Source: Escherichia coli (GTDB lineage Bacteria; Pseudomonadota; Gammaproteobacteria; Enterobacterales; Enterobacteriaceae). Taken from it: a stretch of DNA of 64,000 nucleotides. Below are positions 21,073 through 32,797 of this stretch, one piece after another. The translations under genes and the position numbers were made by a program. The stretch is from NCBI RefSeq assembly GCF_003790525.1, contig NZ_CP033635.1; one strand, written 5' to 3'. Under the pieces are notes generated by a model. That model ran no database searches, was not told where the DNA came from, and saw only the letters and a program-made list of their open reading frames with translations. Each line of letters begins with the position of its first letter. Within the stretch, counting starts at the first letter, position 1.

Positions 21073-21225
21073 ATGCTGACAAAATATGCCCTTGTGGCAA
21101 TCATAGTGCTGTGTTTTACAGTACTGGGATTCACGCTGATGGTAGGCGACTCGTTGTGTGAGTTGAGTATCAGAGAACGTGGTATGGAGTTTAAGGCGGT
21201 TCTCGCTTACGAATCGAAGAAGTAG
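21073..21225 (+). CDS. Hok/Gef-family type I toxin (50 aa)
   Basis: Below the ORF-track length cutoff; ATG at 21073 preceded by GGGAGG (21061-21066); [50 protein letters not shown] has the Hok family TM helix plus LCE...AYES signature. Confidence 0.7.
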
Positions 21226-21246
21226 CCACCACGCGGGGGTAAAACC

Positions 21247-22585
21247 CATAAGCGCTAACTTAAGGGTTGTGGTATTACGCCTGATATGATTTAACGTGCC
21301 GATGAATTACTCTCACGATAACTGGTCAGCAATTCTGGCCCATATTGGTAAGCCCGAAGAACTGGATACTTCGGCACGTAATGCCGGGGCTCTAACCCGC
21401 CGCCGCGAAATTCGTGATGCTGCAACTCTGCTACGTCTGGGGCTGGCTTACGGCCCCGGGGGGATGTCATTACGTGAAGTCACTGCATGGGCTCAGCTCC
21501 ATGACGTTGCAACATTATCTGACGTGGCTCTCCTGAAGCGGCTGCGGAATGCCGCCGACTGGTTTGGCATACTTGCCGCACAAACACTTGCTGTACGCGC
21601 CGCAGTTACGGGTTGTACAAGCGGAAAGAGATTGCGTCTTGTCGATGGAACAGCAATCAGTGCGCCCGGGGGCGGCAGCGCTGAATGGCGACTACATATG
21701 GGATATGATCCTCATACCTGTCAGTTCACTGATTTTGAGCTAACCGACAGCAGAGACGCTGAACGGCTGGACCGATTTGCGCAAACGGCAGACGAGATAC
21801 GCATTGCTGACCGGGGATTCGGTTCGCGTCCCGAATGTATCCGCTCACTTGCTTTTGGAGAAGCTGATTATATCGTCCGGGTTCACTGGCGAGGATTGCG
21901 CTGGTTAACTGCAGAAGGAATGCGCTTTGACATGATGGGTTTTCTGCGCGGGCTGGATTGCGGTAAGAACGGTGAAACCACTGTAATGATAGGCAATTCA
22001 GGTAATAAAAAAGCCGGAGCTCCCTTTCCGGCACGTCTCATTGCCGTATCACTTCCTCCCGAAAAAGCATTAATCAGTAAAACCCGACTGCTCAGCGAGA
22101 ATCGTCGAAAAGGACGAGTAGTTCAGGCGGAAACGCTGGAAGCAGCGGGCCATGTGCTATTGCTAACATCATTACCGGAAGATGAATATTCAGCAGAGCA
22201 AGTGGCTGATTGTTACCGTCTGCGATGGCAAATTGAACTGGCTTTTAAGCGGCTCAAAAGTTTGCTGCACCTGGATGCTTTGCGTGCAAAGGAACCTGAA
22301 CTCGCGAAAGCGTGGATATTTGCTAATCTACTCGCCGCATTTTTAATTGACGACATAATCCAGCCATCGCTGGATTTCCCCCCCAGAAGTGCCGGATCCG
22401 AAAAGAAGAACTAACTCGTTGTGGAGAATAACAAAAATGGTCATCTGGAGCTTACAGGTGGCCATTCGTGGGACAGTATCCCTGACAGCCTACAAAACGC
22501 AATTGAAGAACGCGAGGCATCGTCTTAACGAGGCACCGAGGCGTCGCATTCTTCAGATGGTTCAACCCTTAAGTTAGCGCTTATG
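21247..22585 (+). mobile_element. IS186 insertion sequence (about 1339 bp)
   Basis: 23-bp terminal inverted repeats CATAAGCGCTAACTTAAGGGTTG (21247-21269) and its reverse complement (22563-22585); encodes IS186-type transposase; flanked by a duplicated GGGTAAAACC-type target. Confidence 0.9.
21302..22414 (+). CDS. insL: IS186 transposase (IS4 family)
   Basis: 370 aa from ATG 21302 (MNYSHDNWSAILAHIGKPEEL...); the ORF track starts two codons earlier at a GTG. Confidence 0.9.
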   Translation: MNYSHDNWSAILAHIGKPEELDTSARNAGALTRRREIRDAATLLRLGLAYGPGGMSLREVTAWAQLHDVATLSDVALLKRLRNAADWFGILAAQTLAVRAAVTGCTSGKRLRLVDGTAISAPGGGSAEWRLHMGYDPHTCQFTDFELTDSRDAERLDRFAQTADEIRIADRGFGSRPECIRSLAFGEADYIVRVHWRGLRWLTAEGMRFDMMGFLRGLDCGKNGETTVMIGNSGNKKAGAPFPARLIAVSLPPEKALISKTRLLSENRRKGRVVQAETLEAAGHVLLLTSLPEDEYSAEQVADCYRLRWQIELAFKRLKSLLHLDALRAKEPELAKAWIFANLLAAFLIDDIIQPSLDFPPRSAGSEKKN

Positions 22586-22768
22586 GGGTAAAACCCCGCG
22601 TACTGAATTGTGATGGTTTGGTCTCCTGCACCCTTTTTTAATTTATATTGTTTATGTGAATATTATGCCTATGTTTATTATTCATATATATTACGGATGA
22701 AAATTATTTGATTATTCATAATGTAAATATTTTATTGAACGATATATATCACAGATAATTTTTAATAT

Positions 22769-25468
22769 ATGCGTAAATATCCTTTAAGTTTACTGAAGGA
22801 TAAAAATATTGTGACTTTTTTTGATTTCTGGGGAAAAACCCGACGCGGCGAGAAAGACGGGGGCGACGACTATCACCTTCTTTGCTGGCATTCGCTGGAT
22901 GTAGCCGCGATGGGCTATTTAATGGTTAAAAGCAATTGCTTCGGACTGGCTGACTATTTTCGTCAATTAGGTTTCGCTGACACGGAGCAGGCAGCACAAT
23001 TTTTCGCCTGGCTGCTGTGCTGGCACGATATTGGAAAATTTGCCCGCTCTTTTCAGCAACTTTACCTGCACCCACAACTCAAGGTCCCGGAAGGCGCAAG
23101 AAAGAATTACGAAAAGATCTCTCATTCAACGCTGGGCTACTGGTTGTGGAACCATTATTTAAGTGAATGTCAGGAGTTGCTTCCTTCATCTTCACTCTCT
23201 CCGCGCAAACTTAAACGGGTGATGGAGATGTGGATGCCCATGACTACCGGGCATCATGGTCGACCCCCTGAGCGTATGGATGAACTGGATAATTTTCTGC
23301 CTGAAGACAAAGGTGCCGCACGAGATTTTCTCCTTGCAATCAAGGTACTGTTTCCGCTCATAGAGATCCCCACATTCTGGGATGATGACGAGGGCGTTGA
23401 ACTTATAAAACAACTTTCCTGGTATATCTCTGCAACCGTCGTACTTGCAGACTGGACGGGATCGTCAACGCGATATTTTCCACGCGTCGCACAGACAATG
23501 GATATTGAAGATTACTGGCAGAAAACTTTAGTTCAGGCTCAAAACGCCTTAACCGTCTTTCCTCCAAAAGCAGAAAGCGCGCCTTTCACCGGAATTAATA
23601 CGCTGTTTCCTTTTATTGAGAATCCGACACCGCTACAGCAAAAGGTGCTGGATCTGGATATCAGCCAGCCGGGACCACAGTTATTTATTCTGGAGGATGT
23701 AACCGGCGCAGGTAAAACAGAAGCGGCGCTTATCCTGGCGCACAGGTTGATGGCTGCGGGGAAAGCGCAGGGTTTGTTTTTTGGCCTGCCAACAATGGCA
23801 ACGGCCAATGCCATGTACGATCGACTGGTCAAAACCTGGCTTGCTTTCTATTCGCCAGAGTCCCGCCCCAGCCTGGTGCTGGCACACAGTGCCCGAACAT
23901 TAATGGACCGCTTTAATGAATCACTCTGGTCCGGTGATTTAGTCGGGTCAGAAGAACCGGATGAACAAACGTTCAGTCAGGGATGTGCGGCCTGGTTTGC
24001 CGACAGTAACAAGAAGGCGCTACTGGCTGAAATTGGCGTCGGCACGCTGGATCAGGCGATGATGGCTGTGATGCCGTTCAAACATAATAATCTGCGGCTT
24101 CTGGGACTGAGTAACAAAATCCTGCTGGCTGATGAGATCCATGCCTGTGACGCTTACATGTCATGCATTCTTGAAGGGCTGATCGAGCGGCAGGCGCGTG
24201 GCGGAAACAGCGTCATTTTGCTTTCTGCCACGTTATCTCAACAGCAGCGCGACAAACTCGTTGCTGCCTTTGCGCGTGGTATAGAGGGCCAGCAAGAAGC
24301 TCCGTTCCTGGAAAAGGATGATTACCCCTGGCTGACGCACGTTACGAAATCCGATGTGCATTCACACCGGGTAGCGACGCGCAAAGACGTTGAGCGCAGC
24401 GTGAGTGTGGGTTGGCTTCATAGCGAACAAGAGTGTATTGCGCGTATCGCATCGGCGGTAAGTCAGGGGAAATGTATCGCCTGGATCCGAAATTCTGTCG
24501 ATGACGCCATCCAGGTTCATCGTCAGTTACTTGCCCGCGGCGTCATTCCTGCTTCCAGCCTTTCACTTTTTCATAGCCGCTTTGCTTTTAGCGATCGCCA
24601 GCGAATTGAAACGGAGACGCTGGCACGCTTTGGTAAAGAAGACTGTTCACAGCGTGCCGGAAAAGTCCTCATTTGTACTCAAGTCCTGGAGCAGAGCGTT
24701 GACTGCGACCTGGACGAAATGATTTCCGACCTTGCCCCTGTTGATTTACTGATCCAGCGAGCAGGGCGATTACAGCGACATATCCGCGATATGAATGGCC
24801 AGTTAAAGCGTGACGGTAAAGACGAGCGTCACCCTCCTGAATTGCTGATTCTGGCCCCCGTCTGGGACGACTCTCCGGGTGACGAATGGTTTGGCAGTGC
24901 CATGCGTAACAGTGCATTTGTCTATCCCGATCATGGGCGAATCTGGCTGACGCAGCGTGTGCTGCGTGAGCAAGGTGCTATTCAGATGCCACACTCAGCC
25001 CGGCTTCTGATTGAATCAGTCTACGGTGAGGACGTAGTAATGCCGGAAGGGTTTGCCCGCAGCGAGCAGGAGCAAGTGGGCAAATATTACTGCGATCGCG
25101 CAATGGCTAAAAAGTTTGTACTGAACTTCAGGCCCGGCTATGCCGCCAATATCAACGATTACCTCCCGGAAAAACTGTCGACACGTCTGGCTGAAGAGTC
25201 TGTTTCCCTGTGGCTGGCTACCTGTATTGACGGTGTGGTGAAGCCTTATGCCACAGGTGCACACGCATGGGAAATGAGCGTTGTCAGAGTGCGCCGAAGC
25301 TGGTGGAAAAAACATCGGGATGAGTTTTCTTTACTGGAAGGGGATGCGTTCAGGCAGTGGTGCGTTGAACAGCGGCATGATCCGGAGATGGCAAACGTGA
25401 TTTTAGTCACCGATGACGAAAGTTGTGGGTATTCGGCTACGGAGGGATTGATTGGCAAGGTTGGTTGA
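22769..25468 (+). CDS. cas3: Cas3 helicase-nuclease (type I-E)
   Basis: 899 aa; N-terminal HD region and superfamily-2 helicase motifs (GAGKTEAA, DEIH); first gene of the cas cluster. Confidence 0.9.
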   Translation: MRKYPLSLLKDKNIVTFFDFWGKTRRGEKDGGDDYHLLCWHSLDVAAMGYLMVKSNCFGLADYFRQLGFADTEQAAQFFAWLLCWHDIGKFARSFQQLYLHPQLKVPEGARKNYEKISHSTLGYWLWNHYLSECQELLPSSSLSPRKLKRVMEMWMPMTTGHHGRPPERMDELDNFLPEDKGAARDFLLAIKVLFPLIEIPTFWDDDEGVELIKQLSWYISATVVLADWTGSSTRYFPRVAQTMDIEDYWQKTLVQAQNALTVFPPKAESAPFTGINTLFPFIENPTPLQQKVLDLDISQPGPQLFILEDVTGAGKTEAALILAHRLMAAGKAQGLFFGLPTMATANAMYDRLVKTWLAFYSPESRPSLVLAHSARTLMDRFNESLWSGDLVGSEEPDEQTFSQGCAAWFADSNKKALLAEIGVGTLDQAMMAVMPFKHNNLRLLGLSNKILLADEIHACDAYMSCILEGLIERQARGGNSVILLSATLSQQQRDKLVAAFARGIEGQQEAPFLEKDDYPWLTHVTKSDVHSHRVATRKDVERSVSVGWLHSEQECIARIASAVSQGKCIAWIRNSVDDAIQVHRQLLARGVIPASSLSLFHSRFAFSDRQRIETETLARFGKEDCSQRAGKVLICTQVLEQSVDCDLDEMISDLAPVDLLIQRAGRLQRHIRDMNGQLKRDGKDERHPPELLILAPVWDDSPGDEWFGSAMRNSAFVYPDHGRIWLTQRVLREQGAIQMPHSARLLIESVYGEDVVMPEGFARSEQEQVGKYYCDRAMAKKFVLNFRPGYAANINDYLPEKLSTRLAEESVSLWLATCIDGVVKPYATGAHAWEMSVVRVRRSWWKKHRDEFSLLEGDAFRQWCVEQRHDPEMANVILVTDDESCGYSATEGLIGKVG

Positions 25469-25565
25469 GATGTCTGCGACAGGATTCTCTGAATAGTTGA
25501 TACACAAAAAAGGATGGAAGGATGGACAACCGACCAGGGATGGTCTTTTTTACGAGAGGATGCGT

Positions 25566-27128
25566 ATGAACTCGTTTTCACTTCTGACAACCCCGTGGTT
25601 GCCTGTTCGTTTCAAAGACGGAACGACAGGCAAGCTGGCACCAGTCGATCTGGCTGATGAAAATGTTGTCGATATCGCCGCACCGCGAGCAGATTTACAA
25701 GGTGCGGCCTGGCAGTTTTTGCTGGGACTACTACAAACCAGCTTCGCGCCAAAAGATCATCGTCGTTGGGATGATATCTGGGAAGACGGACTGGAAGCTG
25801 AAAAGCTACGAGAAGCATTGCTGTCTTTAGAACATGCTTTCCAGTTTGGGCCTGATTCATCTTCATTTATGCAGGATTTTGAGGCGCTCACGGGAGATAA
25901 AGTTCCGGTCGCTTCGCTACTGCCTGAGATTCCCGGCTCTCAAACGACGAAGTTTAATAAAGACCATTTTATCAAGCGGGGTGTAACGGAATATCTGTGC
26001 CCCCATTGCTTAGCATTGGCCTTGTTCTCTTTACAGTTGAATGCACCCGCGGGCGGCAAAGGCTATCGCACCGGTTTACGAGGCGGTGGGCCGATGACGA
26101 CTCTCATTGAATTACAGGAATATCAGGGCAATCAACAAACACCCTTGTGGCGCAAACTGTGGCTCAACGTGATGCCGCAGGATGAAGCCGACTTACCGCT
26201 ACCCAAAAAATTTGACGATCTGATTTTCCCCTGGCTAGGCCCGACGCGTACCAGCGAACTGGTCGGTGCGGTGGTAACCCATGATCAGGTCAATAAACTC
26301 CAGGCGTACTGGGGAATGCCGCGGCGTATACGTATTGATTTTAATACCACGACAGTCGGCAACTGCGATATTTGCGACGAGCAGAACGACGCGCTCCTGA
26401 GCCTGATGACGACCAAAAATTATGGTGCCAATTATGCCATGTGGCAGCATCCCTTAACGCCTTACCGTGTACCACTTAAAGAGGGTGGCGAGTTTTACTC
26501 CGTTAAACCACAACCGGGCGGTTTAATCTGGCGCGACTGGTTAGGCCTTATCGAAACGGGTAAATCAGAAAACAATACGGAACTTCCCGCGTTGGTGGTG
26601 AAACTCTTTAATGCCAGCAGTCTGAAACAGGCAAAAGTGGGCCTATGGGGATTTGGTTATGATTTTGACAACATGAAAGCGCGCTGTTGGTACGAACACC
26701 ATTTCCCGCTACTGCTCAATAAAAAAGAAGGCCAGATACCGAAGCTGCGGCTGGCTGCGCAAACGGCTTCACGGATTCTGAGTCTGTTACGGAGTGCATT
26801 GAAAGAAGCATGGTTCTCCGATCCAAAAGGTGCAAGGGGTGATTTCAGTTTTGTGGATATCGACTTCTGGAACAAAACTCAGCATCGCTTCCTGAGGTTA
26901 GTGCGCCAAATTGAAGAAGGTCAGGATGCGGATGAATTACTCGGCAAATGGCAAAAGGAAATGTGGTTATTCGCGCGTCAGGATTTTGACGAGCGTGTAT
27001 TCACTAATCCTTATGAGCCCGTTGATTTGAAACGCGTCATGACCGCGCGCAAGAAATATTTTACAACATCGGCGGAGAAGCAAAGTGCTAAAGCCGCCAG
27101 GGAGAAAAAGCAGGAGGCTGCTGAATGA
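25566..27128 (+). CDS. casA: Cascade large subunit Cse1 (CasA)
   Basis: Start taken at ATG 25566 (MNSFSLLTTPWLPVR) with GAGAGG upstream; the ORF track begins at a TTG at 25497; position right after cas3. Confidence 0.8.
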   Translation: MNSFSLLTTPWLPVRFKDGTTGKLAPVDLADENVVDIAAPRADLQGAAWQFLLGLLQTSFAPKDHRRWDDIWEDGLEAEKLREALLSLEHAFQFGPDSSSFMQDFEALTGDKVPVASLLPEIPGSQTTKFNKDHFIKRGVTEYLCPHCLALALFSLQLNAPAGGKGYRTGLRGGGPMTTLIELQEYQGNQQTPLWRKLWLNVMPQDEADLPLPKKFDDLIFPWLGPTRTSELVGAVVTHDQVNKLQAYWGMPRRIRIDFNTTTVGNCDICDEQNDALLSLMTTKNYGANYAMWQHPLTPYRVPLKEGGEFYSVKPQPGGLIWRDWLGLIETGKSENNTELPALVVKLFNASSLKQAKVGLWGFGYDFDNMKARCWYEHHFPLLLNKKEGQIPKLRLAAQTASRILSLLRSALKEAWFSDPKGARGDFSFVDIDFWNKTQHRFLRLVRQIEEGQDADELLGKWQKEMWLFARQDFDERVFTNPYEPVDLKRVMTARKKYFTTSAEKQSAKAAREKKQEAAE

Positions 27129-27661
27129 GTATTGTAAAAGAGGAGCACAAAGCCACGCTGCGTAAATGGCACGAAGAGTTGCAGGAAAAACGCGGCAATC
27201 GTGCCAGTCTGCGGCGTAGCACAACGGTTAATGATGTTTGTCTGTCAGAAGGTTTTCGTTCTCTGCTGATGCAGACCCACACGTTGTGGAAAATTGAATC
27301 ACAGGAGTGGCGTTTTACCGCACTGGCGCTGGTTGCCGCCGTTGCCGCCAATGTAAAAGCCATTGATGAACGGCAGCCTTTTGCCGCGCAGTTGGCGGCG
27401 GTAATGTCTGAGGGGCGTTTTACTCGCCTGTCGGCAATCAAAACGCCGGATGATTTACTGCGCCAGTTACGTCGCGCGGTCAAATTATTAAACGGTTCCG
27501 TCAATCTTATCTCTTTGGCAGACGATATTTTCCGCTGGTGCCAGGAGAGTGACGACCTGCTCAACCATCACCGCCGTCAGCAGCGGCCAACAGAATTTAT
27601 CCGTATCCGCTGGGCGCTGGAATATTACCAGGCTGGCGACGCCGATAACGAACAAAATTAA
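27125..27661 (+). CDS. casB: Cascade small subunit Cse2 (CasB)
   Basis: 178 aa; ATG overlaps the cse1 stop (ATGA); position in the operon. Confidence 0.8.
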   Translation: MSIVKEEHKATLRKWHEELQEKRGNRASLRRSTTVNDVCLSEGFRSLLMQTHTLWKIESQEWRFTALALVAAVAANVKAIDERQPFAAQLAAVMSEGRFTRLSAIKTPDDLLRQLRRAVKLLNGSVNLISLADDIFRWCQESDDLLNHHRRQQRPTEFIRIRWALEYYQAGDADNEQN

Positions 27662-27675
27662 TAAAGGACTATCTC

Positions 27676-28731
27676 ATGACGACATTTATTCAGCTTCATT
27701 TGTTAACCGCTTACCCTGCAGCCAACCTTAACCGTGATGACACCGGTGCGCCGAAAACCGTGGTGCTGGGTGGAGCAACGCGTCTGCGCGTTTCCTCGCA
27801 AAGTCTGAAACGTGCGTGGCGCACTTCTGCACTTTTTGAACAGGCGCTGGCGGGCCATATTGGTATTCGTAGTGGGCGTATCGCGCGCGAGGCAGCAACT
27901 ATCATGATAGAGAAAGGAATCGAAGAAAAAAAAGCCATCGAATGGGCGGCAGATATTGCCGATTATCTTGGTAAAGCCAAAAAAGACAAAAAACCAAAAG
28001 ATCCGCTCACTAACGCTGAAACTGAACAGCTCGTCCATATCAGCCCGGCAGAATTTGACGCCGTAAAAGCGCTGGCCCATCAACTGGCAGAAGAAAAGCG
28101 CGCGCCAAAAGAGGACGATCTCGCTTTGTTACGTAAAGATCGTATGGCGGTAGATATCGCCATGTTTGGTCGTATGCTGGCGAATAAACCCGAGTTTAAT
28201 GTTGAAGCCGCCTGTCAGGTCGCGCACGCGTTTGGTGTCAGTGAAACGATTGTCGAAGATGATTTTTTCACCGCCGTTGATGATTTGCGCCAGGCCTCTG
28301 AAGATGCTGGTGCAGGGCATCTTGGTGAAACTGGATTTGGTTCTGCGCTGTTCTACACCTATATCTGCATTGATAAAGATCTGCTGGTCGAAAACCTCGG
28401 CGGTGACGAAGCATTAGCTAATCAGACCCTGCGCGCCTTTACGGAAGCAGCGTTTAAAGTTTCCCCAACCGGTAAACAAAACAGCTTTGCCAGCCGTGCC
28501 TACGCCTCCTGGGCGCTGGCAGAAAAAGGCACCGAACAACCGCGTTCTCTGGCGGCGGCTTTCTATGAACCCATTAATGGCACACGTCAGTTAGATGTGG
28601 CGGTGCAGCGTATTACAACGCTTCGCGAAAACATGAATACGGTTTACGAACAGAAGACCGAATGCGCAAGTTTTGACGTGATGAACAAACAGGGAAGCAT
28701 GAAGGACGTGCTGGACTTTATCTGCGCGTAA
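27676..28731 (+). CDS. casC: Cascade backbone subunit Cas7e (CasC)
   Basis: 351 aa; position and size in the I-E operon. Confidence 0.85.
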   Translation: MTTFIQLHLLTAYPAANLNRDDTGAPKTVVLGGATRLRVSSQSLKRAWRTSALFEQALAGHIGIRSGRIAREAATIMIEKGIEEKKAIEWAADIADYLGKAKKDKKPKDPLTNAETEQLVHISPAEFDAVKALAHQLAEEKRAPKEDDLALLRKDRMAVDIAMFGRMLANKPEFNVEAACQVAHAFGVSETIVEDDFFTAVDDLRQASEDAGAGHLGETGFGSALFYTYICIDKDLLVENLGGDEALANQTLRAFTEAAFKVSPTGKQNSFASRAYASWALAEKGTEQPRSLAAAFYEPINGTRQLDVAVQRITTLRENMNTVYEQKTECASFDVMNKQGSMKDVLDFICA

Positions 28732-28741
28732 GGGGCGGCTT

Positions 28742-29488
28742 ATGAGCCAATATCTGATTTTTCAGCTTCATGGGCCAATGGCATCCTGGGGCGTTGATGC
28801 ACCCGGTGAGGTGCGTCATAGCCATGAACTGCCTTCGCGTTCAGCATTGCTGGGGCTGCTGGCTGCCGGGGTAGGGATACGGCGTGATGACACCGAATGC
28901 TTAAACGCGTTTAATCGCCACTATTCACTGGTGGTTTGCGCCAGCCGTAACCCGCGCTGGGCACGGGATTATCACACGGTCCAGATGCCAAAAGAGGTGC
29001 GTAAAGCGCGTTATTTCAGCCGTCGCGAAGAGTTGAGCGACCCTGATCTTCTAAGCGCGATTATCTCCCGGCGCGACTACTACACCGATGCCTGGTGGAT
29101 GGTGGCCGTGGCAACAACAGCTGATGCGCCTTACAGCCTCGAACAGTTGCAGGAAGGTTTACGCCATCCGGTTTTTCCGCTTTATCTGGGGCGAAAAAGC
29201 CATCCGCTGGCATTACCCCTTGCGCCGTTACTGCTCGAAGGCAACGCGTCTGATGCCTTACGTAACGCATACCAACAGTATCAGGATCGTTTCCACGAAC
29301 TAAAAGTCTCACTCCCGAAACTTCAGGATGAATGCTGGTGGGAAGGGGAGCACGATGGCCTGGTCTCGAGCAAAATATTACGCCGCCGGGATGTTCCTTT
29401 AAATCGTCAGCAGTGGCTGTTTGGGGAACGCACCGTCAATCAGGGGCCGTGGCTCAGCAAGGAGGAACCATGTACCTCTCAAGAATAA
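28742..29488 (+). CDS. casD: Cascade subunit Cas5e (CasD)
   Basis: 248 aa; position in the operon. Confidence 0.85.
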   Translation: MSQYLIFQLHGPMASWGVDAPGEVRHSHELPSRSALLGLLAAGVGIRRDDTECLNAFNRHYSLVVCASRNPRWARDYHTVQMPKEVRKARYFSRREELSDPDLLSAIISRRDYYTDAWWMVAVATTADAPYSLEQLQEGLRHPVFPLYLGRKSHPLALPLAPLLLEGNASDALRNAYQQYQDRFHELKVSLPKLQDECWWEGEHDGLVSSKILRRRDVPLNRQQWLFGERTVNQGPWLSKEEPCTSQE

Positions 29489-30116
29489 CCTTACATACCG
29501 GCCAGCTTTCGCCTGCGCAGTTGCTGCATCTGGTGGATCGCGGGGAATATGTGATGCATCAGTGGCTGTGGGATCTTTTTCCTGGCGGCAAAGAAAGGCA
29601 ATTTCTTTATCGTCGGGAAGAACTCCAGGGCGCGTTTCGCTTTTTTGTCCTGTCGCAGGAACGCCCGGCGGAAAGTGAAACGTTCACCATCGAATGCCGG
29701 TCATTTGCGCCTGAACTGCATACCGGACAATCCCTTTGTTTCAACCTGCGGGCGAATCCAACAGTCTGTAAAGCGGGTAAGCGCCACGATCTGCTGATGG
29801 AGGCGAAACGGCAGGTGAGGGGGCAGGCGGAAGGAAGAAATGTCTGGTTGCATCAACAACAGGCGGCGCTGGACTGGCTGGCAGCGCAGGGGGAGAGAAG
29901 CGGTTTTACACTGCTGGATACCTCGGTCGATGCCTACCGACAACAGCAACTGCGGCGGGAAAACTCCCGGCAACTGATCCAGTTCAGTAGCGTGGATTAT
30001 ACAGGGATGCTTACAGTCACCGATCCAGGGTTATTTCTGCAACGTCTCTGCCTGGGGTATGGCAAAAGCCGGGCGTTCGGCTGTGGTCTGATGTTAATCA
30101 AACCCGGAGCAGAGGC

Positions 30117-30120
<4 letters not shown>
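29470..30120 (+). CDS. casE: crRNA endoribonuclease Cas6e (CasE)
   Basis: Start taken at MYLSRITLHTG with GGAGGA at 29461-29466; overlaps the casD 3' end by 19 bp. Confidence 0.85.
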
Positions 30121-31330
<1,210 letters not shown>

Positions 31331-31426: not shown

Positions 31427-32797
31427 GTGTTCCCTGCGCCAGCGGGGATAAACCGGTGACCATAAGGGCATTTCATACTGCCTTGCTGTGTTCCCTGCGC
31501 CAGCGGGGATAAACCGGTGAACGTGACAACGCCCGCGACAGAAACGTCGTGTTCCCTGCGCCAGCGGGGATAAACCGGGAAGAAGCGGTAAAGCGGGTTC
31601 CAGTTCAGCGTGTTCCCTGCGCCAGCGGGGATAAACCGAAATTAATTTCGAAACGGGCGTTGATGGTGAAGTGTTCCCTGCGCCAGCGGGGATAAACCGG
31701 CTGGCGCACCTTACGCAAAAATAGACGTAAAGTGTTCCCTGCGCCAGCGGGGATAAACCGCCAGGGAGCGAAGCTGTGGCCATGCTGAAAGGGTGTTCCC
31801 TGCGCCAGCGGGGATAAACCGGGGTTCTATTTCCTCGGGATTTGCCGACACGCGTGTTCCCTGCGCCAGCGGGGATAAACCGGTCAACGCTGGTCAGGCG
31901 TGGTACTTCCTCCGGTGTTCCCTGCGCCAGCGGGGATAAACCGGCTGCCGCGCTTTCGGTGTGGGAGCAGTATGAGTGTTCCCTGCGCCAGCGGGGATAA
32001 ACCGAAACTCCGTGGTGTAGTGCGTTTGTTGGTGCGGTGTTCCCTGCGCCAGCGGGGATAAACCGTTGGTATTAACGGGAATGTAGTCACTCCAGGAGTG
32101 TTCCCTGCGCCAGCGGGGATAAACCGGCGATCGTATTTTCCGCTACGTCGCTCAAATGGTGTTCCCTGCGCCAGCGGGGATAAACCGTCGTTGATGGTGT
32201 GATGAGTGTACAAAAAAAAGTGTTCCCTGCGCCAGCGGGGATAAACCGACGACTGAATCCGGCGAGGCTATCAACTGGCCGTGTTCCCTGCGCCAGCGGG
32301 GATAAACCGCCGCACACGTCGAGCTGGTGGGGATTAATGCTGTGTTCCCTGCGCCAGCGGGGATAAACCGCAGTAAACGTTCGCGCGTTCTCGCGCTCAC
32401 GAGTGTTCCCTGCGCCAGCGGGGATAAACCCTCTGTGTATTCGCTACCAGCCAGCACCGGTACGTGTTCCCTGCGCCAGCGGGGATAAACCGCAGGGTAA
32501 CTGGCTGCTCCTCAACCATTCCGCGTGTTCCCCGCGCCAGCGGGGATAAACCGGGGTTTTAGCGACCGGACCAGAGTACGCAACAGTGTTCCCCGCGCCA
32601 GCGGGGATAAACCGTTGCGCCTTAAGTTCCTTAACTTCCTCTGTATGTGTTCCCCGCGCCAGCGGGGATAAACCGGGAGTGATGAATTGGAAGTAACGGA
32701 TAACCGCGTGTTCCCTGCGCCAGCGGGGATAAACCGGACGCACTGGATGCGATGATGGATATCACTTAGAGTTCCCCCCGCCCCTGCGGTAGAACTC
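31427..32797 (+). CRISPR. type I-E CRISPR array: 23 repeats of 29 bp (last one degenerate), 22 spacers of 32 bp, period 61 bp
   Basis: Repeat GTGTTCCCTGCGCCAGCGGGGATAAACCG starting at 31427, 31488, 31549 ... 32708 (every 61 bp); degenerate terminal repeat GAGTTCCCCCCGCCCCTGCGGTAGAACTC at 32769-32797. Confidence 0.95.

Follow-up and report, generated by a model that had tools for sequence, protein, structure and literature searches.

[quoted passage not shown] Within the window, by which we mean the whole 64,000-nt stretch analyzed, the longest cse1 frame spans 25497..27128 (543 codons in the ORF list) and opens at a TTG, and ATG 25560-25562 and ATG 25566-25568 both lie in the TTG-25497 frame. 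Direct reading and the ORF list agree with the first-pass annotation on this frame, on the two in-frame ATGs and on the GAGAGG motif ahead of them. The ambiguity is real in practice, since versions of 520, 522 and 543 aa are all held in public databases: a database search for the exact protein found at least 1000 contigs with the 520-aa form, 4 with the 522-aa form and 1 with an M-initiated 543-aa form (ESD09712.1, GenBank). As set out below, the comparison of alleles and homologues indicates that cse1 is almost certainly translated from ATG 25566. This start is already known, as it equals the RefSeq annotation, and our analysis confirms it by population and comparative evidence. The locus is organized as follows:

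22769..25468, + strand: cas3 (899 aa), ending in the TGA at 25466-25468; identified from the ORF list, Pfam Cas3_HD and Cas3-like_C_2, and RefSeq on the identical SMS-3-5 sequence
25469..25565, + strand: cas3-cse1 spacer of 97 nt, intergenic in the annotation of seven genomes
25566..27128, + strand: cse1/casA/cas8e coding sequence of 520 aa from ATG 25566; identified from TIGR02547, PF09481, RefSeq WP_012311912.1 and homologue N-termini
27125..31330, + strand: cse2, cas7e, cas5e, cas6e, cas1e and cas2e, the remainder of the type I-E operon; identified from the ORF list and RefSeq on identical sequence
31427..32736, + strand: CRISPR array of 22 repeats, each 29 nt, with a period of 61 nt; identified by repeat search and a RefSeq direct_repeat feature

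The annotated order, cas3-casA-casB-cas7e-cas5e-cas6e-cas1e-cas2e-CRISPR, places the gene where cse1 is expected in a type I-E operon. The protein matches TIGR02547 over the full length of the family, residues 5-509 covering model positions 1-504 of 504 at 605 bits (curated cut-off 70.05 bits), and a profile search with PF09481 gave 363.5 bits (curated cut-off 24.7 bits). K-12 CasA/Cse1 (b2760; PDB 4qyz, 5h9f) belongs to the same two families and occupies the same place after cas3, but it is only distantly similar to the window protein (phmmer E = 2.4e-15, with the alignment limited to about residues 1-290). Cascade assembly, PAM recognition and Cas3 recruitment are known biochemical properties of K-12 CasA (PDB 4qyz and others). 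The region 25300-25800 is 100% identical in SMS-3-5 and its relatives, with matches in 2448 of 5426 complete E. coli genomes. SMS-3-5 casA (RefSeq WP_012311912.1) has the identical sequence and the identical start, equivalent to window position 25566, and the sole difference between the window and the SMS-3-5 record is an IS186-like insertion upstream of cas3. The window carries the E. coli cas-E variant designated E1, and K-12 carries E2 (PMC3903273). 'Cas3' members of 847-885 aa in the 90% protein cluster of Cse1 suggested a natural Cas3-Cse1 fusion; their sequences are plain Cas3 lacking any Cse1 part, and the mixed cluster is probably a clustering artefact.

Three short features frame the choice of start codon:

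25494..25499, + strand: TAG at 25494-25496 followed by TTG at 25497-25499, which opens the longest frame; from direct reading, judged unused
25554..25559, + strand: Shine-Dalgarno sequence GAGAGG, its GGA running into 25560; invariant in eight E. coli alleles
25560..25562, + strand: in-frame ATG, unconserved and not regarded as the start; replaced by ATA in the O157:H7-type allele and with zero spacer to the Shine-Dalgarno sequence

The GAGAGG motif forms a predicted anti-Shine-Dalgarno duplex of -6.7 kcal/mol and stands 6 nt from ATG 25566, versus 0 nt from ATG 25560. The register of the protein family favors the same codon. Comparison with Cse1 homologues, a check proposed in the first-pass annotation, centers on the Trp of a WLPV motif (W-[LI]-P-[VA]) that lies 7-11 residues beyond the family N-terminus. 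With ATG 25566 this Trp is residue 11, as it is in 64 of the 113 homologue N-termini compared; in 110 of them it lies within residues 8-12, and in none at residue 13 or 34, where ATG 25560 and the TTG, respectively, would put it. Position 1 of TIGR02547 falls on residue 5 of the 520-aa protein, where the alignments to Pfam and PDB 4qyz start too. The N-terminal register is common to K-12 CasA (MNLLIDNWIPVR) and the window Cse1 (MNSFSLLTTPWLPVR, the translation from ATG 25566), K-12 residue 2 (PDB 4qyz) pairing with residue 5 in the 520-aa numbering and with residue 28 in the 543-aa numbering. In all seven E. coli genomes inspected, SMS-3-5 and six others, RefSeq/PGAP annotation begins casA at the base equivalent to 25566, though these starts and the homologue N-termini are both products of gene calling and only partly independent of each other.

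Natural variation provides a further line of evidence. In 317 complete E. coli genomes, O157:H7-type alleles read ATA CAT ATG and so lack ATG 25560; another allele, found in 150 genomes, interrupts the frame after the TTG and ahead of both ATGs with a TAG at 25536-25538. One inspected genome of each class has casA annotated as intact, at 1563 nt. Among eight E. coli alleles, the stretch of 23 codons (69 nt) between TTG 25497 and 25565 has its variable sites distributed 2/3/2 over codon positions 1/2/3, unlike those inside cse1 (23/16/55) and in the 3' end of cas3 (8/10/26), where substitutions show the third-position bias that is absent upstream. Outside E. coli, nine orthologues of other genera were compared, and five of them (those of Salmonella, C. 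freundii, C. rodentium, Cronobacter and one unassigned contig) have no in-frame start between the preceding stop and the homologous ATG. The first-pass proposal that cse1 starts at ATG 25566 with the N-terminus MNSFSLLTTPWLPVR is thus supported by annotation, population variants, orthologues, family models and Shine-Dalgarno spacing. For cloning or tagging Cse1 of this E. coli variant, the N-terminus to use would be MNSFSLL..., and the 522- and 543-aa records are best read as over-extended.

Translation from ATG 25560, alone or alongside ATG 25566, would give a 522-aa protein beginning MRMNSFS.... This codon is a true ATG, in frame and two codons upstream of ATG 25566, its product appears in some GenBank submissions (the 4 contigs above), and a difference of two residues is not separable by homologue alignments alone. 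Its replacement by ATA in the 317 genomes, with casA still annotated as intact in the inspected O157:H7 genome, its direct abutment on GAGAGG, the lack of any homologue with Trp at residue 13, and the absence of an equivalent codon from the orthologues of other genera together make its use very unlikely, though a low level of initiation may occur at it in strains that have this ATG. Translation from TTG 25497, with a 23-residue N-terminal extension whose residues include IHKKGWKDGQPTR, has so little in its favor that we regard it as practically negligible: the TTG opens the longest ORF, in exactly the 543-aa form annotated in ESD09712.1, and its frame is open in seven of the eight E. coli alleles inspected, but it is a weak start codon served by a weak and distant AGGA (best anti-Shine-Dalgarno pairing -4.1 kcal/mol, ending 11 nt upstream), its frame is closed by the TAG in 150 genomes, the substitutions across 25497-25565 show no third-position bias and include R-to-W and R-to-M, the extension has a counterpart in no homologue or family model, and a hairpin within the stretch conserves its pairing and not its codons. 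Nor is the open frame itself evidence of coding, because 23 codons stay open in about one third of random sequences ((61/64)^23, approximately 0.33). The earlier suggestion that these codons are untranslated accordingly gains support from the natural TAG allele, the missing third-position bias and the lack of a homologous extension.

With the start placed at ATG 25566, the whole 97-nt cas3-cse1 spacer is, on the same comparative evidence, a non-coding leader or intercistronic region of cse1. This leader is better conserved among the eight E. coli alleles, varying at 11 of 97 sites, than the first 405 nt of cse1, which vary at 94. Over its full length (25469-25565) its predicted folding is weaker than that of shuffled sequence (z = +1.95), and an Rfam search of 25300-25750 returned no family, the only matches being eukaryotic snoRNA and miRNA noise below threshold. 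Its features of interest are local:

25510..25525, + strand: tandem AAGGATGG AAGGATGG, containing two ARGGAT (CsrA-consensus-like) motifs; from direct reading and a motif scan
25532..25545, + strand: hairpin GACCA-GGGA-TGGTC with loop GGA at 25538-25540, 28 nt ahead of the start; from folding, conservation and covariation
25546..25551, + strand: run of six T residues 3' of the hairpin, E. coli-specific and with a weak terminator-like look; from a terminator-like scan

The hairpin has a folding energy of -7.0 kcal/mol, and its stem is short in E. coli (4-5 bp, -6 to -7 kcal/mol), with the closing A-U pair broken in some alleles. All 14 leaders compared, which come from E. coli, three species of Klebsiella, C. 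rodentium, Raoultella, Cronobacter, Pectobacterium and an unassigned contig, keep the loop GGA unchanged at -25 to -28. Compensatory changes appear in the stem, one pair occurring as GC, AU, CG and GU and another as GC, CG and UG. The stem covariation score of 0.39 exceeds the 0.17 +/- 0.05 of shuffles, was matched by none of 500 shuffles and compares with at most 0.195 in slid-register controls, a count taken over only 11 distinct hairpin sequences and for a structure derived from those same sequences. The sample stayed small because a scan of the genome collection with AAGGAAAANNNATGTTTCCNNNAAA for leaders of the 'MFP...' type gave 24 matches, 22 of them chance matches in unrelated taxa, and the only real leaders were those of Klebsiella spallanzanii and K. 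indica. In Salmonella, C. freundii and C. sedlakii the cas3-cse1 spacer is just 10-11 nt and has no hairpin. The second copy of the tandem is lost from most of the other E. coli alleles, where AATGATGG or AAAGATGG stands in its place; a GGA near the 25510-25525 position is retained in long-spacer orthologues. A conserved 32-aa small ORF in the long spacers of relatives matched no family in a Pfam search.

What might such a leader do? The arrangement of RsmA/CsrA sites 5' of cas8e in Serratia offers an analogy by which CsrA may control the cse1 leader. In Serratia, RsmA RIP-seq enriches cas8e, and cas8e mRNA is 2.75-fold higher in an rsmA mutant (Campa et al. 2021, PMC8450108); binding and regulation of type I-E transcripts by RsmA/CsrA have so far been demonstrated in Serratia only. 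The RsmA site of Serratia sp. ATCC 39006 lies at the same cas3-cas8e junction of a type I-E operon and, as described, shares the architecture seen here, with an ANGGA in a predicted hairpin loop adjoining a GGA at the ribosome binding site (PMC8450108). The one Serratia locus fetched, that of S. aquatilis, differs in having a 24-nt spacer with no hairpin.

The window leader carries GGAs at 25512, 25520, 25538 and 25558, so that at least two stand at a spacing that a CsrA dimer could bridge. ARGGAT occurs at 25510, 25518 and 25536, three matches within 32 nt (25510-25541); across the window it was observed 46 times against 45.6 expected, which makes the cluster a local one and not part of a general enrichment. 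One GGA occupies the loop of the hairpin at 25532-25545, a structure derived from the same 11 distinct sequences in which it was assessed. Another overlaps the Shine-Dalgarno sequence (GAGAGGA, 25554-25560), which on its own is weak evidence for CsrA because GGA is commonplace there: most Shine-Dalgarno sequences contain it. That the spacer is a conserved CsrA-responsive translational operator in the widespread E. coli type I-E variant that differs from that of K-12, and in its relatives (Klebsiella, Citrobacter, Raoultella, Cronobacter and Pectobacterium), with CsrA bridging the hairpin loop GGA at about -28 and the GGA of the Shine-Dalgarno sequence, is a tentative proposal, possible though in our estimate somewhat improbable. 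If true, synthesis of the large Cascade subunit would be tied to the Csr carbon/stress circuit across Enterobacterales, and the leader is a candidate, concrete enough to be tested, for a site of post-transcriptional Cascade control in E. coli and related bacteria.

A second reading takes the hairpin and T run (25532-25551) as an intrinsic terminator or attenuator at which cas3 transcription would end, and not as a protein-binding site in the cse1 leader. The segment was flagged by the terminator-like scan, and the hairpin lies 64 nt past the cas3 stop, with six T residues directly after it. Set against the G+C-rich stem and U tract of a terminator, the E. coli element offers a stem of only 4-5 bp (5 bp and -7.0 kcal/mol in the window, -6 to -7 kcal/mol among alleles) with its T6, and the U tract is absent from five other genera: the homologous hairpins of Klebsiella, Citrobacter, Raoultella, Cronobacter and Pectobacterium lack the T run and keep the GGA loop and the distance to the start. 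Efficient termination at T6 would moreover deprive cse1 of transcript, because the scan found no promoter-like site between the hairpin and cse1; a sigma-70 consensus scan of 22300-26000 gave no match, and the source promoter of the cse1 leader was not found. We therefore consider a terminator unlikely.

Still less probable, and far down the scale, is translation of a 15-codon upstream ORF (ATG 25522 to TGA 25567-25569, MDNRPGMVFFTRGCV) coupled to cse1 through an ATGA overlap. This ORF has good Shine-Dalgarno pairing (-7.8 kcal/mol, ending 3 nt before ATG 25522), is open in all eight E. coli alleles and ends in a stop that overlaps ATG 25566. However, it is absent from the orthologues of other genera, whose cse1 begins ATGTTT, ATGGAC, ATGCAT and the like, and its Shine-Dalgarno sequence is altered in most alleles. 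The overlap is trivial for any cse1 that begins ATG-A (Met-Asn), as K-12 does with an unrelated 5-codon ORF, and ATG 25522 and its Shine-Dalgarno sequence are by-products of the GGATGG repeats. We rejected the ORF as a coupled leader peptide, its appearance being an incidental product of those repeats and the ATG-A start.

The account that we favor, of an untranslated leader ahead of ATG 25566, can be put as a sequence of steps, the start-codon and leader steps resting on comparative evidence and the last on the Serratia RsmA analogy. GAGAGG (25554-25559) would position the 30S subunit at ATG 25566, 6 nt downstream, and the product would be the 520-aa Cse1 (CasA/Cas8e), the large subunit of Cascade, beginning MNSFSLLTTPWLPVR. 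TTG 25497 and ATG 25560 would be incidental in-frame codons of the 97-nt leader, whose predicted hairpin would display the invariant loop GGA about 28 nt ahead of the start, with a second GGA inside the Shine-Dalgarno sequence. Both GGAs may be bound by one CsrA dimer, which would limit cse1 translation. Taken jointly, with the CsrA step as a putative one, we consider this account highly probable.

The leader also differs from the corresponding region of K-12 and of relatives with long spacers. The cas3-cas8e interval is the location of CreR-type mini-arrays (Shmakov et al. 2023, bioRxiv 10.1101/2023.03.03.530964). Outside the array we found no CRISPR repeat-like sequence at 3 or fewer mismatches, and thus no mini-array of this type in the 97-nt spacer, which resembles the 'typical' I-E locus of Shmakov et al., without room for an extra RNA gene (10.1101/2023.03.03.530964). 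The K-12 cas3-casA spacer, in contrast, is 414 nt long and includes the Pcas promoter region as well as a repeat-like element. A degenerate, reverse-oriented repeat lies just after cas3 in K-12 and likewise in K. aerogenes and C. rodentium, the latter two with spacers of about 480-495 nt.

The large-subunit gene of the type I-E Cascade, cse1 (casA, cas8e), lies in a reading frame with three candidate start codons, and direct reading of the sequence confirmed that the coordinates in the first-pass annotation are exact. The longest frame opens at TTG 25497 (25497..27128, 543 codons in the ORF list) and is shared by ATG 25560 and ATG 25566, which follow GAGAGG at 25554-25559. Upstream, the frame is bounded as follows.

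25466-25468, TGA stop codon of cas3
25494-25496, in-frame TAG, followed directly by TTG 25497

Translation from 25566 yields MNSFSLLTTPWLPVR. The 23 open codons upstream have a chance expectation of about one third, so the extension is no evidence of coding. All three forms of the exact protein occur in public databases, with 520 amino acids on at least 1000 contigs, 522 on four and 543 on one; the ambiguity sensed in the first pass has thus led to inconsistent database records.

Sequence comparisons place the predicted start of cse1 at ATG 25566, the codon first proposed as the best fit to Cse1 proteins. Of the top 120 homologue clusters, 113 contain the motif W-[LI]-P-[VA] close to the N-terminus, with its tryptophan at residue 11 in 64, 9 in 27, 10 in 16, and within residues 8-12 in 110. 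ATG 25566 puts this tryptophan at residue 11, whereas ATG 25560 and TTG 25497 would put it at 13 and 34, positions absent among the 113, so that the register matches ATG 25566 and neither alternative. Two clusters with the tryptophan at 31 are long gene calls with an internal methionine in the usual register. Position 1 of TIGR02547 aligns at residue 5 of the 520-aa form, and the Pfam PF09481 and K-12 CasA alignments start at the same place. No in-frame start other than the orthologous ATG is possible in Salmonella, C. freundii, C. rodentium, Cronobacter or a further contig (L016). The GAGAGG lies 6 nt from ATG 25566 and zero from ATG 25560; the anti-Shine-Dalgarno duplex with GAGAGGAU reaches -6.7 kcal/mol, while pairing for TTG 25497 reaches just -4.1 kcal/mol and ends 11 nt away.

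Allelic variation within E. coli agrees. Alignment of the O157:H7-type allele, present as an exact 44-mer in 317 complete genomes, reads GAGAGG ATA CAT ATG, and ATG 25560 is therefore lost. A separate allele (exact 44-mer in 150 genomes) has an in-frame TAG at 25536-25538, between TTG 25497 and both ATGs. Neither ATG 25566 nor GAGAGG varies among the compared alleles. Across eight alleles, variable sites in the 23 upstream codons number 2/3/2 at codon positions 1/2/3; the opening 405 nt of cse1 show 23/16/55 and the final 366 nt of cas3 show 8/10/26. Together with the TAG allele and the weak Shine-Dalgarno pairing of the TTG, this spectrum supports the earlier suggestion that the upstream codons are probably not translated. 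The start is also already annotated there: RefSeq begins casA at the base equal to 25566 in SMS-3-5, an E. coli genome with an identical cas region, and in six others picked across the identity range, each with a 97-nt gap past cas3 and a 1563-nt casA.

The 23 'codons' are part of this 97-nt cas3-cse1 spacer, a non-coding leader (25469-25565). Among the eight alleles, 11/97 of its sites vary, against 94/405 in 25566-25970 of cse1, which is consistent with leader constraint or with a recombination boundary, such as that described for cse1-cas7 (PMC3903273). The spacer is predicted to fold more weakly than shuffled sequence (z = +1.95), and an Rfam search of it matched no family. It also contains a 15-codon upstream ORF (25522-25569, MDNRPGMVFFTRGCV) with good Shine-Dalgarno pairing, whose TGA overlaps the cse1 ATG as ATGA. 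This ORF is open in every E. coli allele seen but absent from other genera, and is therefore probably incidental.

Spacer length differs widely among relatives. It is shortest (10-11 nt) in Salmonella, C. freundii and C. sedlakii; S. aquatilis and E. kobei have 24-28 nt, and Cronobacter, Raoultella, the L016 contig, K. aerogenes and C. rodentium have 429-495 nt. In their final ~60 nt the long spacers show homology with the E. coli leader, and 14 leaders share a hairpin whose loop always contains GGA, 25-28 nt 5' of the cse1 ATG.

Window, 25532-25545, GACCA-GGGA-TGGTC
K. aerogenes, TGCGCCA-GGGA-TGGCGCA
Pectobacterium, GCCGCA-GGGA-TGCGGC
Cronobacter, AGGCC-ATGGAG-GGCCT

Compensatory changes occur in the stem (one pair GC:5 AU:4 CG:1 GU:1, another GC:5 CG:3 UG:1). 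Stem covariation is 0.39 against 0.17 +/- 0.05 when shuffled (0/500 reach it) and at most 0.195 in slid-register controls, in a small sample of 11 distinct sequences from which the structure itself was derived. Scanning the genome collection with a DNA pattern returned mostly chance matches.

The window's hairpin loop has the sequence AGGGAT, which matches ARGGAT exactly; ARGGAT occurs twice more in the leader, at 25510 and 25518, and another GGA falls within the Shine-Dalgarno sequence. Window-wide, ARGGAT occurs 46 times against 45.6 expected, so the leader cluster is local. In Serratia, type I-E cas expression is repressed by RsmA (CsrA), and the transcripts co-purify with this protein (Campa et al. 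2021, PMC8450108); the tables of that study give a 2.75-fold increase of cas8e mRNA in an rsmA mutant and a 2.0-fold RIP-seq enrichment. Because the window leader fits their description of the Serratia cas8e site, we tentatively regard blocking of the cse1 ribosome-binding site by CsrA as the likeliest function of the hairpin, though we hold it with more doubt than confidence. A T6 run directly past the E. coli hairpin, which a terminator-like scan picks up, suggests termination instead. However, at -6 to -7 kcal/mol the stem is weak, and in other genera the homologous hairpin lacks a T run, so termination would probably be no more than a secondary property, confined to E. coli. The sole somewhat fresh part of these results is that a conserved GGA-loop hairpin emerges as a candidate operator for CsrA in bacteria other than Serratia.

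The long spacers hold further elements. They open with a degenerate, reverse-oriented copy of the type I-E CRISPR repeat (e.g. CTTATCCCCGCTGGCGCGAGGAACGG), preceded in K. aerogenes and C. rodentium by a GC-rich hairpin, and the K-12 cas3-casA spacer (L045) has CGGTTTATCCCTACTTAAGTAGGGAAGG at the same place. The repeats of these three match the elements, repeat-like or mini-arrays, that Shmakov et al. 2023 described between cas3 and cas8e, whereas the window's 97-nt spacer lacks one. Just 5' of the GGA-loop hairpin, long spacers carry a small ORF of 32 aa that is conserved and has a Shine-Dalgarno sequence of its own (e.g. MEEKSNRCKRLFCRLMIRLGNKLSVSFQLSVR, MQEESTRFKCLFLRMMVRLGKKLSISFQLSLH). This ORF matched nothing in a Pfam search and is absent from the window.

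K. aerogenes (L010), spacer 1017-1500, small ORF 1350-1448
C. rodentium (L011), spacer 1006-1500, small ORF 1351-1449
L016, small ORF 650-748
L013, L015, L026 and L028, small ORF also present

The window gene is a bona fide Cse1/CasA/Cas8e, which resembles the K-12 protein only distantly (E = 2.4e-15 against PDB 4qyz). Of the E. coli I-E gene variants, the locus carries the non-K-12 one, which Almendros et al. 2014 (PMC3903273) named cas-E1. The 90%-identity cluster holding the window Cse1 (25566-27125) has a plain Cas3 as representative and further Cas3 members. A natural Cas3-Cse1 fusion, suspected from this mixture, was rejected: the Cas3 member sequences lack any Cse1 part. The two neighbouring genes were probably mixed through chained or fused gene calls, and cluster sizes for Cse1 therefore need caution.

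Queried with 25300-25800, SMS-3-5 and ~25 further complete genomes are 100% identical, and 2448/5426 complete E. coli genomes have relatives at ≥90% identity. RefSeq annotation of SMS-3-5 gives the order cysJIH, hok, cas3, casA, casB, cas7e, cas5e, cas6e, cas1e, cas2e, CRISPR.

21073-21225, Hok/Gef family toxin gene between cysH and cas3 (coordinates transferred from the identical SMS-3-5 sequence)
21248-22584, IS186-like element of the IS4 family, 1337 nt
31427-32736, CRISPR array of 22 repeats with a 61-nt period

The IS186-like element, 22 nt past hok and 184 nt 5' of the cas3 start, encodes a 372-aa transposase (21296-22414). Inverted repeats of ~23 nt form its ends, and a 12-bp target duplication, GGGGTAAAACCC, borders it at 21236-21247 and 22585-22596. 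The element is missing from the otherwise 100% identical SMS-3-5 record; IS186 and hok-sok have been described at this same position (PMC3903273). Between the element and cas3, 22600-22768 is extremely A+T rich. No recognisable Shine-Dalgarno sequence precedes the cas3 ATG there, and a sigma-70 consensus scan found no promoter-like site in this interval and none for a cse1 transcript. In the array, 19/22 repeats carry a C-to-T change at position 9 (CCCTGCG, not CCCCGCG), which would make one stem pair a G-U wobble; only the repeats at 32525, 32586 and 32647 keep the canonical stem.
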